Under the pieces are notes generated by a model. The model had not been told where the DNA came from and made no database searches. It saw only the letters and a list, made by a program, of their open reading frames with translations. Positions 34,818 through 38,296 of a DNA stretch of 64,000 bases are shown piece after piece. The position numbers and the translations under genes were made by a program. The stretch comes from an uncultured Collinsella sp. (lineage in GTDB: Bacteria > Actinomycetota > Coriobacteriia > Coriobacteriales > Coriobacteriaceae). Each line of letters opens with the position of its first letter. Position 1 is the stretch's first letter. The stretch covers positions 95,689 through 159,688 of the forward strand of contig CAJLVJ010000001.1 in NCBI GenBank assembly GCA_905210085.1. Direction: 5' to 3'.

Positions 34818-35222
34818 CTATTCCGCCTTTTTAACGCGCGGCTTGCGACCGCGCGGCTTATCGATAAGCGCGTCGGCGCCGCCATCGCGATACTGGCGAC
34901 ACCAGGCCTTAACCGGAGACTCGCTGGGAATCTTGTGCTTGATCATGGCCTCGCGAACCGTCAGACCGTTTTCCAAACGGTCCTTAACCACGGCGAGCTT
35001 TACGTCGTACGAATACGTGCGGTGATGCGAGCCCGCGTTGAGCACAGCGTCGGCACCGCCCACGGCATATGCGCGGGCCCACTGGCGAGCCGTGGCCTGG
35101 GGAATGCCAAGCTTTGCGGCAAGGGCGCGGTGACCGACCCCCTCTTGGAGGATCTCGACGGCGCGCTGCCTAACCTCGGGCGCATGCGTGCGAGTCCTAG
35201 TTGCTTCCGACATACCTGCCAC
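34818..35222 (-). CDS. IS3-family (IS150-group) OrfA-like double-HTH protein, orphan
   Basis: Two HTH modules each end in a W..Y...G...L pattern (ATARQWARAYAVGGADAVL; PVKAWCRQYRDGGADALIDKPRGRK), as in IS150 InsJ-type OrfA. There is no OrfB, frameshift window or terminal repeats nearby. Confidence 0.65.
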   Translation of the reverse strand: MAGMSEATRTRTHAPEVRQRAVEILQEGVGHRALAAKLGIPQATARQWARAYAVGGADAVLNAGSHHRTYSYDVKLAVVKDRLENGLTVREAMIKHKIPSESPVKAWCRQYRDGGADALIDKPRGRKPRVKKAE

Positions 35223-35660: not shown

Positions 35661-37691
35661 CTACAGCTCGTTGGCCGCGTGATACGCCGTGCGAATGGCG
35701 CTCGCAATGTCGGCAGTGCGCTCGCCCGAGCAGTCGCCCACGCAGGTCACGGGCACCGTCACGCCGTCCAGGTCAAACGCGTTGGCCTTGGAGCCCACGG
35801 CCATCACCACGTAATCGCAGGCGATCTTCACCGGCTCCTCGGCGCCGTCCTCGGTGGTGCGAATGGCCTCCACGCCCTCGTCGGTAATGGCGGTCAGGCG
35901 GGTCTTCACGTGCTGCTCCACGTTGTGCTCTGCAAAGTCGCTCATAATCAGCGGCAGAATGGTCTCGGACTCGCCCGCGGCAATCTTGTCGAGCATCTCC
36001 ACGATCGCCACCTCGCAGCCGTGCTGCAGCAGGTACTCGGCAGTCTCGGTGCCCACCAGGCCGCCGCCAATGACAGCGACGCGGCCCGTAAGCTCCGCCT
36101 TGCCGGCCAGCACGTCCCAGCTCGAGACGACCTTCTCCGAGTCGGCACCCGGAACGGGGATAACCACGTCGTGCGCGCCCACGGCCACAATCGCGGCGTC
36201 GGCGGCGTTGAGGTCCTCAGCAGTAGCGGCATGGTTGAGCTCAACCTTCACGCCCAGGCCGGGCAGAATCTTCTCGTAATACTCGACCGAGCGCATGATC
36301 TCGTCCTTGCGCGGAGGCGCGGCCGCCAGCACAATCTGGCCGCCCAGATGATCGCTCGCCTCGTAGACGGTCACATCGTAGCCGCGCTTGGCCGCCACGC
36401 GTGCGGCCTCCAGGCCGGCAATACCGCCGCCCACCACGGCGATCTTCTTGTCGCCCTCGCCCGGCTTGATGGCGACGGTCGCCTCGTCGCCGTTCTCGGC
36501 GTTGAGCACGCACGAGATGTACTTGCGGTTTTGAATCGCATCGACGCAGCCCTTGTTGCAGTTGAGGCACTCGCGGATGGGCTCACCCGTGGCGGCCTTC
36601 AGCGCAATGTCGGGGTCGCACATGAGCGAGCGGCCATAGGCGATGATGTCGGCCGCGCCGTCTTCCAGAATCTTCTCGCCGGCCTCGACCGAGATGACAC
36701 GGCCCACGGTTGCCACCGGCACGGAGACCAGGGCCTTGACGCGCTCGGCCACGGGCAGCGTCCAGTTGTAGGGCATGGCGCCCATGGGCGGAATGGTGTC
36801 GCCCATGTTGCCGGTGTGGTTGGCCTGTGCAACCTGGATCATGTCGATGCCCGCGCCCTCGAGCAGCTTGGCGAACTCGCAGGCCTCGTCAGGCTGCAGG
36901 CCGCCCTTGCCGCGCGGCGTGCCGTCGGGGTTCTCCATGATCACGGGGAGCTTGTACTCCATCATCAGCTGCGGCGCGGCTTCCTTAATGGCAGCGACGA
37001 CCTCGAGCGCGTAGCGAACGCGGTTCTCGAACGAGCCACCGTACTCGTCGGTGCGCTGGTTGAGGATGGCCGAGCACAGCGAACCCACCAGGCGATCGCC
37101 GTGGACCTCGATGGCGTCGATGCCGGCCTGCTGCGCACGGGCGGCCGAGGCAGCGATGGCTTCCTTGATCTGGGTGAGCTGTTCTACGCTTGCCTCGTTC
37201 ACAAAGTGCTGCATGTCGTGGTGCAGCTTGGCGTAGGCCTGATTGCGGATCTCGTTGGACTCGGCCATCTTGGCGGCAAAGGTCTCCTCGTCGCCGGCGG
37301 CCTTGGCCTCCTGCGCGGCCTTGGCAGCGGCCATGGATCCCATGACCATGCGGCCGACACCGGGCACGTCATACTCGGGGTGGAACAGCTGCAGCGCGAC
37401 CTTGGCGCCGTGCTTGTGGACGGCGTCGGCCAGCGCCTTAAACGTGGGGATCTGGGCGTCGGTTGCCAGCTTGGGCGTGGGGCTCGCGGTCATGACGGGA
37501 GCAACGTCACCGATGACGATGTAGCTCACGCCGCCACGGGCCAGGCGCTCGTAAAAAGCCAGGCTGCGCTCGCCAATGGAACCGTCGCGCTCCTCGTAGC
37601 CGGTGGTCAACGGCGGGAACATAATGCGGTTCTTGAGCTCAAGGGGGCCAACCGTAATGGGCTGGAGCAGCTTGGATGCAGGTGCGGTCAT
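35661..37691 (-). CDS. OYE-like FMN domain fused to an FAD/NAD(P)-binding domain (2,4-dienoyl-CoA reductase / enoate reductase family)
   Basis: An N-terminal TIM-barrel NADH:flavin oxidoreductase region is followed by the ECLNCNKGC Fe-S motif and then the IAVVGGGIAGLEAA dinucleotide-binding fold. Confidence 0.85.
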   Translation of the reverse strand: MTAPASKLLQPITVGPLELKNRIMFPPLTTGYEERDGSIGERSLAFYERLARGGVSYIVIGDVAPVMTASPTPKLATDAQIPTFKALADAVHKHGAKVALQLFHPEYDVPGVGRMVMGSMAAAKAAQEAKAAGDEETFAAKMAESNEIRNQAYAKLHHDMQHFVNEASVEQLTQIKEAIAASAARAQQAGIDAIEVHGDRLVGSLCSAILNQRTDEYGGSFENRVRYALEVVAAIKEAAPQLMMEYKLPVIMENPDGTPRGKGGLQPDEACEFAKLLEGAGIDMIQVAQANHTGNMGDTIPPMGAMPYNWTLPVAERVKALVSVPVATVGRVISVEAGEKILEDGAADIIAYGRSLMCDPDIALKAATGEPIRECLNCNKGCVDAIQNRKYISCVLNAENGDEATVAIKPGEGDKKIAVVGGGIAGLEAARVAAKRGYDVTVYEASDHLGGQIVLAAAPPRKDEIMRSVEYYEKILPGLGVKVELNHAATAEDLNAADAAIVAVGAHDVVIPVPGADSEKVVSSWDVLAGKAELTGRVAVIGGGLVGTETAEYLLQHGCEVAIVEMLDKIAAGESETILPLIMSDFAEHNVEQHVKTRLTAITDEGVEAIRTTEDGAEEPVKIACDYVVMAVGSKANAFDLDGVTVPVTCVGDCSGERTADIASAIRTAYHAANEL

Positions 37692-37833: not shown

Positions 37834-38130
37834 TCTCAATCTGTAACATCTACTCGGCAAAACCGGGTCTTACTGTTACAGATCGAGATATTCCCCTCGA
37901 CCCAACCTCAACAATCTCAATCTGTAACAGCTAGGCCCACTTTTGACCCCTACCTGTTACAGATCGAGACAAACCAAACCCGCCTGCTAGAAAATCTCAA
38001 TCTGTAACAACAACTCGGCAAAATCCGTCCCTCGTGTTACAGATTTAGACAAACACGACCCAACCCACCGGTATATCTCGATCTGTAACACCTAGCCGCC
38101 CAAATCGGGTCTAGATGTTACAGATCGAGA
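37834..38130. repeat. Array of eight 15-mers (TCTCRATCTGTAACA) in strictly alternating orientation with 25-26 nt spacing
   Basis: Forward copies lie at 37834, 37915, 37995 and 38076. Reverse-complement copies lie at 37874, 37955, 38035 and 38116. The gaps are 25, 26, 25, 25, 25, 26 and 25 nt. Confidence 0.85.
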
Positions 38131-38180
38131 TTTTGTTTGAGAGGCCGAGAATTGGACCGAAAACACGGTCCCGGAATAAC

Positions 38181-38214
38181 AAAAAAGCTCGCCGGCTAGG
38201 CCGACGAGCTGCAA
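38181..38214 (-). terminator. Intrinsic terminator downstream of the tRNA
   Basis: The minus strand reads AGCTCGTCGGC-CTA-GCCGGCGAGC followed by TTTTTT. Confidence 0.7.
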
Positions 38215-38219
38215 GTTCT

Positions 38220-38296
38220 TGGTCGCGGGGGCAGGATTTGAACCTACGACCTCCGGGTTATGAGCCCGGCGAGCTACCAGACTGCTCCACCCCGCA
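38220..38296 (-). tRNA. tRNA-Met (anticodon CAT), initiator-like
   Basis: The hand-folded 77-nt cloverleaf is TGCGGGG-TG-GAGC-AGTCTGGTA-GCTC-G-CCGGG-CTCATAA-CCCGG-AGGTC-GTAGG-TTCAAAT-CCTGC-CCCCGCG-A-CCA. It is near-identical in layout to bacterial tRNA-fMet, including three G:C pairs closing the anticodon stem. The 1:72 pair is a weak U.G. Confidence 0.85.

Follow-up and report, generated by a model that had tools for sequence, protein, structure and literature searches.

The DNA analysed here, which we call the window, is a stretch of 64,000 nucleotides from an uncultured Collinsella sp. (contig CAJLVJ010000001.1, positions 95,689 to 159,688), and our subject is an array of short repeats of alternating orientation at 37834-38130 within it. 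The array lies in an intergenic region whose features are all on the minus strand, in the order tRNA-Met, its terminator, array and reductase gene. The tRNA gene (38220..38296, minus strand) has the anticodon CAT and, judged by eye from an alignment, the three G-C pairs in the anticodon stem that are typical of initiator tRNAs. Its canonical intrinsic terminator (38186..38210, minus strand; an 11-bp G+C-rich stem, then TTTTTTG) sits between tRNA and array and is context, outside the repeat. On the other side, a 676-aa Old Yellow Enzyme / FAD-NAD(P) oxidoreductase is encoded at 35661..37691 (minus strand), with its start codon 143 bp from the array. The protein matches the NCBIfam model ‘bilirubin reductase, long form’ (1044 bits against a cut-off of 750) and is identical to a 676-aa oxidoreductase encoded on a gut-metagenome scaffold. 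An earlier note on this DNA had these surroundings right (tRNA, terminator, reductase and the 143 bp), except that the terminator stem is 55 bp from the array and not about 50. The interval 34818-35222 (minus strand) encodes a 134-aa protein with two helix-turn-helix domains (HTH_28 and HTH_Tnp_1; transposase-OrfA-like); this gene directly follows the reductase gene and precedes an Ech/Mrp-like hydrogenase cluster.

The array is built from one 15-mer, TCTCRATCTGTAACA, which has eight matches at up to two mismatches in the window, all of them within 37834-38130. About 0.13 matches are expected by chance, eight were reached in none of 100 shuffles, and the statement that the 15-mer occurs nowhere else in the window thus holds. 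Forward copies start at 37834, 37915, 37995 and 38076 and reverse copies at 37874, 37955, 38035 and 38116, giving start-to-start steps of 40, 41, 40, 40, 40, 41 and 40 bp and gaps of 25, 26, 25, 25, 25, 26 and 25 bp. These sites, starts and gaps are as first described, but only seven of the eight copies are exact. The near copy, at 38035, reads TCTAAATCTGTAACA on the minus strand and has one mismatch to the degenerate consensus, A for C at arm position 4, which is one of two positions that vary across the whole family described below. Tandem Repeats Finder gave no report at the window array, because conservation is limited to the arms.

Read as pairs, the 15-mers form four units of 55 bp, each with a forward arm, a 25-bp centre and a reverse arm. 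Unit 1 (37834..37888) has its forward arm at 37834-37848 (TCTCAATCTGTAACA), its centre at 37849-37873 and its reverse arm at 37874-37888. It is followed by spacer 1 (37889..37914; 26 bp) and by unit 2 (37915..37969; forward arm 37915-37929, centre 37930-37954 in the T-run orientation, reverse arm 37955-37969). Spacer 2 (37970..37994; 25 bp) is of the CAAAC...GAAAA type and leads to unit 3 (37995..38049), with arms at 37995-38009 and 38035-38049 around a centre at 38010-38034. Spacer 3 (38050..38075; 26 bp) starts with CAAAC, and unit 4 (38076..38130) closes the array with its forward arm at 38076-38090, centre at 38091-38115 and reverse arm at 38116-38130.

The same site, with tRNA-Met beside the reductase gene, recurs in seven other genomes, and its centres and spacers are common to all of them. 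Orthologues of unit 1 are found in loci L027, L048, L064, L084, L096, L103 and L119. The eight orthologous copies (window counted) carry three or four units: L064, L084, L096 and L103 lack unit 2 together with spacer 1, a deletion of one period (about 81 bp) present in 4/8 arrays. Conservation in relatives that share the flanking genes, on which the earlier note had made any role for the array depend, is therefore borne out, and on these alignments the window array is a vertically inherited locus. In the flank between array and tRNA terminator, 38131-38185 holds GGACCGAAAACACGGTCC, a small hairpin that resembles the pattern of unit centres (G/C-rich, A-run, G/C-rich) and may be the remnant of a decayed unit.

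The array is one copy of a dispersed family and not, as it had first appeared, an element particular to the tRNA/reductase locus. The family was scanned with the pattern ATCTGTAACA-N20-30-TGTTACAGAT in one genome per species. At least 120 stretches were obtained, and the family counts given here cover the stretches listed. Apart from a few titled ‘uncultured bacterium’ or belonging to differently named bins, the listed matches are titled Collinsella. They hold at least 143 arrays and at least 367 units. The unit is the same throughout, 15-mer, 25 bp and inverted 15-mer (55 bp in all), repeated with a period of 80-81 bp; arrays open with a forward arm, close with a reverse arm and have one to seven units each. 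Spacing is strict: the forward-to-reverse gap is 25 bp in 354/357 cases, and the reverse-to-forward gap is 24-26 bp in 234/237 (24 bp in 7, 25 bp in 135 and 26 bp in 92). Clustering of the flanks gave 55 flank combinations in total and at least 30 distinct genomic sites. The idea of a lineage-specific cluster of repetitive extragenic palindromic (REP) sequences gains support from these many unrelated intergenic sites, while the lack of fixed spacing that would mark a generic REP family is contradicted by both gap lengths across the family.

The record NZ_OY725717.1 of C. aerofaciens TSDC17.2-1.1 (899,693 bp) gives a view of the family within one genome. It contains 13 arrays with 30 units, plus one truncated array, and lone 15-mers outside arrays (up to three mismatches) are at chance level. 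Placement is uneven, with zero arrays in 1-400 kb, all 13 in 402-877 kb, and six packed into 402-423 kb around gltBD and the Nramp gene. The window and this record share no synteny. By extrapolation, a Collinsella genome of 2.4 Mb would hold a few dozen arrays. The record is filed in PLSDB as ‘plasmid 6’. It carries rpoBC, most ribosomal-protein operons, recA, ftsK and dnaE, and its cumulative GC skew is monotonic; because rpoBC and the ribosomal-protein operons are present, it is a piece of chromosome mislabelled as a plasmid. Gene orientation and skew place the part with arrays closer to the replication origin, within what is a fragment of a single replichore.

The family is Collinsella-specific and interspersed, and it appears to be undescribed. 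The 15-mer was in no paper found by literature searches, searches for Collinsella repeats gave nothing relevant, and the 10-mer core turned up in coincidental occurrences only (e.g. a predicted mycobacterial CRP site).

What is kept in these arrays is the 15-mer and the two lengths. In 321 unique units, at least about 96% of arms match the consensus at every position except 4, 5 and 15, and about 94% match it at position 15. At position 4 the usual base is C and the rarer ones are A and T, while position 5 is A or G in a ratio of about 50:50. The two variable positions together form a CG dinucleotide (e.g. window 37837-37838), found as CG, CA, AG, AA or TG, and a G at position 5 puts TCGA and GATC into the arm. 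The even split between G and A at position 5 resembles the outcome of deamination, of CpG or methyl-cytosine, where there is no constraint.

Centres follow a loose pattern of K-Y-T-A-G, five G/C-rich bases, a run of A or T, five G/C-rich bases and C-T-A-R-M, and spacers often have CAAAC at the start and RAAAA at the end. These motifs do not give the unit one polarity. Correlation is weak at most among the CAAAC flank, the T/G end of the centre, the central A- or T-run and position 5 of the arm, and one array can have them in mixed orientation. The 293 distinct centres fall into about 98 independent groups that are more than six mismatches apart. Two centres from different sites have about 12-13 mismatches in 25 bp, as many as two from the same array, which gives no indication of recent copying; between sites they are near saturation, and yet their length almost never changes.

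Divergence was compared at orthologous sites, with arms required to be detected in one genome only (496 ordered pairs, 28 sites). Arms differ at 5.0% over all positions (position 4, 16%; position 5, 22%; the other 13 positions, 0.3-6.9%), compared with 16.1% for centres, 15.5% for spacers and 10.8% for flanks. A comparison that is biased in that it requires arms to be detectable in both genomes gives 3.2% for arms, 12.7% for centres and 14.8% for spacers. Arms thus diverge about three to five times more slowly than centres and spacers. The earlier suggestion that selection acts on the 15-mers and their spacing agrees with these figures, and the sequence of the 15-mer and both spacing lengths are, as far as alignments can show it, under purifying selection. 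Stated most cautiously, they would be kept in place by either purifying selection or a homogenizing process.

Arrays are intergenic. None of the 143 lies inside a called gene, and many are located just downstream of genes. Where both neighbours were called (32 sites), the genes are convergent at 15, co-directional at 9 and divergent at 8, and a tRNA is a neighbour at four. Twenty flanking proteins annotated from distinct sites have no common function. The neighbours are housekeeping genes without relation to one another and include genes for Nramp, an amidohydrolase, DXP synthase, RF3 and LacI and GntR regulators, as well as a GH1 glycosidase, glycogen phosphorylase, a P-type ATPase and a pseudouridine synthase. 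In the window, after lacG in L150 and in 10/43 distinct gene-end gaps, a canonical terminator separates the array from the end of the gene.

Are the 15-mers read as a duplex or as a folded strand? The window array folds well on both strands, with -156.7 kcal/mol on the minus strand (z = -11.6 against shuffles) and -128.2 kcal/mol on the plus strand (z = -13.6). Such folds are of little information because 15-bp inverted repeats make them inevitable. Substitutions within the arms are more telling. At position 5 the pairs G,G (110), A,A (87), A,G (86) and G,A (82) show that the two arms vary independently, and at the other positions single changes far exceed double ones, with one compensated pair in 321 units. 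Base-pair covariation within the centres is not significant with about 98 independent centres (best z 3.0 among about 230 pairs); high z-scores for hairpins in the centres, from symmetric and offset pairings, arose only when orthologues were counted as independent. On the sense strand in co-directional contexts, arm mismatches are G.U in 32 cases and A.C in 32, and the run in the centre is A in 28 units and T in 24. Uncompensated arms, the lack of strand bias, the terminators that precede arrays and the fixed lengths together favour 15-mers that are recognized as duplex DNA.

We therefore propose, tentatively and with a probability of roughly 0.45, that the arrays are phased protein-recognition sites on double-stranded DNA and that they form a lineage-specific family of repeats akin to bacterial interspersed mosaic elements (BIMEs). 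Each 15-mer would be a sequence-specific site read by a putative protein. The fixed phasing of 40-41 bp (about four helical turns) and the central A/T run could then let neighbouring protomers cooperate on bent or wrapped DNA, and each array would be a small nucleoprotein block in ‘safe’ intergenic DNA, comparable to the BIMEs that bind gyrase or integration host factor (IHF).

Several points weigh against this proposal. The step of DNA binding is inferred, and 40 bp from centre to centre is long for direct contact between proteins unless the DNA is strongly bent. The base just inside both arms is complementary in 15 of the 98 independent centres, where 28.3 are expected (p = 0.0003). Complementarity rarer than chance implies that the palindrome is actively held at 15 bp and that the halves of a unit depend on each other. 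Such an avoidance is not predicted by a simple model of symmetric half-sites; it could mean that longer hairpins are selected against, or that a hairpin needs the mismatch. Three adjacent arms of L096 bear the same T-to-C / A-to-G change, which suggests conversion between arms, or pairing; arm conservation could accordingly come about through gene conversion among arms. Finally, the preference for convergent genes would also be expected of a tolerated selfish element.

The closest analogues of the Collinsella family are E. coli BIMEs and the REPIN clusters of Pseudomonas (REPINs being doublets of REP sequences), which it resembles in architecture. Like the BIMEs of E. coli and other enterobacteria, it occurs strictly outside genes, at numerous unrelated places and often at gene 3' ends, and is made of a short motif that alternates in orientation, with two classes of fixed-length linkers and tandem clusters that vary between strains. 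BIMEs act at the level of DNA, through the binding of gyrase (BIME-2) or IHF (BIME-1). The likeness ends with the repeat itself. In E. coli, each REP by itself forms an imperfect palindrome, about 35 nt long and headed by a GTAG-type motif (20-40 nt and GTAG or GTGG in enterobacteria generally), whereas the Collinsella 15-mer is not palindromic alone and becomes a palindrome only with its partner 25 bp away. By eye, sequence logos of TCTCRATCTGTAACA show no internal dyad beyond TGTWACA and no GTAG head, although no dedicated motif search was made. The Collinsella linkers also lack conserved sequence, arrays number in the tens per genome, no REP-associated tyrosine transposase (RAYT) was found in the loci searched, and the host is an actinobacterium (Coriobacteriia).

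REPINs and their clusters, known from Pseudomonas fluorescens SBW25 and others, share with the family the inverted doublet of a short sequence able to form a long hairpin, an intervening segment that is fixed in length and less conserved than the repeats, the occurrence as singlets and tandem clusters, and long vertical inheritance. REPIN copies, however, are a cloud of relatives around a master sequence and are closely related over their full length; in Collinsella only the arms are common, and centres at different sites are unrelated. In contrast to the REPIN-RAYT system, the searched Collinsella loci yielded no array-flanked RAYT, and no GTAG is evident in the consensus. Miniature inverted-repeat transposable elements (MITEs), such as the Correia elements of Neisseria, are likewise short, intergenic, multi-copy and bounded by inverted repeats. 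The 55-bp unit would be far smaller than known MITEs, its interior is unconserved between copies, and it forms strictly spaced tandem arrays; no target-site duplication was evident by eye around the units of the window, and the 15-mer outside arrays is at chance level in the 900-kb record (the ends of insertion sequences were not inspected individually). A further comparison is with sopC of plasmid F, iterons, matS and the sites bound by Noc and SlmA, which are also short sequence-specific sites under selection, spaced by near-whole helical turns, and scattered unevenly along the chromosome in numbers of some tens. They take the form of direct repeats or short 12-16-bp palindromes and have a known binding protein, while the Collinsella half-sites are 40 bp apart and only intergenic.

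Other classes were set aside. A clustered regularly interspaced short palindromic repeat (CRISPR) array would have direct repeats of 23-47 bp with unique spacers, usually beside cas genes, and not repeats that alternate in orientation or intervening segments with a pattern, and the only match to an Rfam CRISPR-repeat model scores 14.8 bits against 39. The units are not intrinsic terminators either, given a 15-bp stem with a 25-nt loop where a terminator would have a loop of 3-8 nt and then a U-run, separate canonical terminators before arrays and arrays that also lie between divergent genes. Integron attC sites or core sites of a recombinase, at whose paired inverted boxes cassettes or segments are swapped or flipped, do not fit, with no adjacent recombinase in the window, 0/49 inversions and units that are 25 bp apart and not cassettes.

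The main competitor of phased recognition sites is a selfish or commensal element of the REPIN or MITE kind, a possibility that we regard as real but doubtful. The 55-bp unit would form a hairpin in single-stranded DNA and be copied by an enzyme encoded elsewhere, either a RAYT-like Y1 transposase or possibly a DUF559-like protein whose gene is flanked by arrays. Arms would then be conserved because only matching copies are recognized, and arrays would grow by adjacent insertion or unequal recombination. Inverted doublets, tandem clusters, strictly extragenic placement and variable unit number are indeed the architecture of REPINs and BIMEs, and intergenic sites of the convergent type are in excess. 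Judged by their CAAAC flank, units of a single array can face in both directions, as independent insertions would give, and the conserved mismatch at the boundary of arm and centre, which holds the palindrome at 15 bp, is reminiscent of imperfect hairpins recognized by proteins. On the other hand, centres at different sites are alike only in the family pattern, with no trace of recent copy-and-paste; arms are about three to five times better kept in place than centres and spacers, where selfish copies should decay; and copying does not explain an exact 25 bp of otherwise free sequence. Inspection by eye also found no evident target-site duplication around the units of the window.

One candidate for the enzyme is a hypothetical protein of 364-378 aa with a weak C-terminal match to DUF559 (PD-(D/E)XK-like; E = 0.027, below the Pfam cut-off). 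Its gene (L042 4917-6011; L020 904-2040; NZ_OY725717.1 412,152-413,228) is flanked by arrays on both sides, within about 5-45 bp, in 10/10 sequences (nine loci of the scan and OY725717). For a paralogue of 35% identity (L026 1789-2829), the distance to another array is about 0.9 kb in two loci and 1.7 kb, with a gene in between, in a third. This association is possibly due to chance, because the region is dense in arrays and the Nramp gene is likewise flanked on both sides. Next to the paralogue, between it and a putative 5-formyltetrahydrofolate cyclo-ligase-like gene (judged from the translation of its open reading frame), L026 2840-2990 contains a different short repeat, GAGCGTGGAWAATC, in three direct copies and one inverted copy.

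A Y1 transposase was sought by tblastn with approximate RayT, IS608 and IS200 TnpA sequences as queries, which had no match across about 1 Mb of loci that bear arrays, and no RAYT is annotated in the 900-kb record NZ_OY725717.1. That record does have two identical copies of an IS200/IS605 tnpA (WP_055287554.1), an insertion sequence (IS) with hairpin ends of its own that are unrelated to the 15-mer. Copy 1 (L144; 422,650-423,820) sits at the position of the array found downstream of the Nramp gene in other genomes. Its insertion at 422,700 truncated that array, of which one forward arm and the 25-bp centre remain. Copy 2 (L135; 533,230-534,110) lies between a biotin ligase gene and rpsJ, where there is no array. 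An association of the repeat with RAYT or IS200 was rejected for these reasons. IS3, IS21, IS30, IS110, IS256, IS1249 and IS1595 elements are present in the record as well as IS200; as the 15-mer does not occur alone outside arrays, no IS in it should end in the 15-mer, although IS ends were not inspected individually. Gene content changes between genomes directly beside arrays in this gltB-Nramp region: in L008, L016 and L028, the interval from the Nramp gene to the array that precedes gltB does or does not contain a 257-aa gene, depending on the genome.

Phage origin and invertible DNA find no more favour. A phage database had no match to the repeat, and IMG/VR gave 13, of which three are chance matches of low G+C content and ten are Collinsella-like contigs. 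Among these ten, seven match host sites beside the junction of a variable region, and three (L124, L133 and L134) do not match the host loci compared. The arms themselves are not the site of the junctions, which lie about 75 bp beyond the array. Five of the viral contigs (L122, L125, L127, L129 and L131) share one host junction just after a canonical terminator (compared with L040, at about 4673, and L101), which looks like the boundary of a variable region or prophage in the intergenic region of the array. Segments between two arrays were never inverted between genomes (49/49 in the same orientation), and centre matches that had seemed inverted, as in a shufflon, were an artefact of inconsistently oriented and partly shared flanks.

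An element acting as RNA is improbable. Transcribed 15-bp stems would stabilize or terminate transcripts, be substrates of a nuclease (e.g. RNase III) or be processed into small RNAs. The earlier note listed four stable RNA hairpins among its readings, and these are physically possible: both strands fold far better than shuffles, the arm differences in the window give G.U pairs on the minus strand, where tRNA and reductase are encoded, and arrays often follow genes. Oriented by the CAAAC flank, arm position 5 also has a modest excess of A,G over G,A (58 against 31). The hairpins are, however, almost devoid of compensation, with one double change in the arms and no covariation in the centres, and the balance of G.U and A.C on the sense strand across the family leaves no strand bias. 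An RNA hairpin has no need of an exact 25-nt loop or a spacer of 24-26 nt, arrays often lie beyond canonical terminators, and 8/32 sites are between divergent genes. Rfam gave no match at gathering scores and only spurious miRNA-hairpin matches at E up to 10, so that no Rfam family of structured RNA, the Collinsella-1 motif included, matches the array.

Control or recombination tied to this one locus, whether by an operator array of the reductase, a centromere-like site or arm-type sites of an integrase at the tRNA, as the earlier note had envisaged and as the location of the array, with a tRNA gene on one side and the 5' end of the reductase gene on the other (start codon at 143 bp), and the small helix-turn-helix gene downstream might suggest, is effectively excluded, since the identical unit stands at dozens of sites beside functionally unrelated genes, which rules out an operator or regulon, and tRNAs adjoin only 4/32 sites, which rules out a tRNA-specific recombination or integration site, while no recombinase or integrase adjoins the window array, segments between arrays stay uninverted and the viral junctions fall outside the arms.

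Few actinobacterial genera are as prevalent in the human gut as Collinsella, and its repeat family is a clean case in which to study the purpose of REP-like elements, since a 15-mer and two lengths are kept while the rest drifts. This pattern of conservation predicts a sequence-specific binder with a 40-bp register. From the uneven placement (400 kb of one replichore without an array, then 13 arrays in the following 500 kb), one may go further and suppose that a putative protein on the alternating 40-bp lattice organizes the chromosome, with arrays as domain barriers, entry points for topoisomerases or region-specific markers. We consider this extension unlikely as matters stand; if it were true, the arrays would be a new kind of chromosome-structuring cis element and not a relic of transposition. 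There are practical sides too. Arrays would break short-read assemblies, and they could be mistaken for regulatory sites of their neighbours, such as the bilirubin-reductase-like gene of the window. Conversely, since the number of units varies between strains, they could be used as markers for strain typing in Collinsella.

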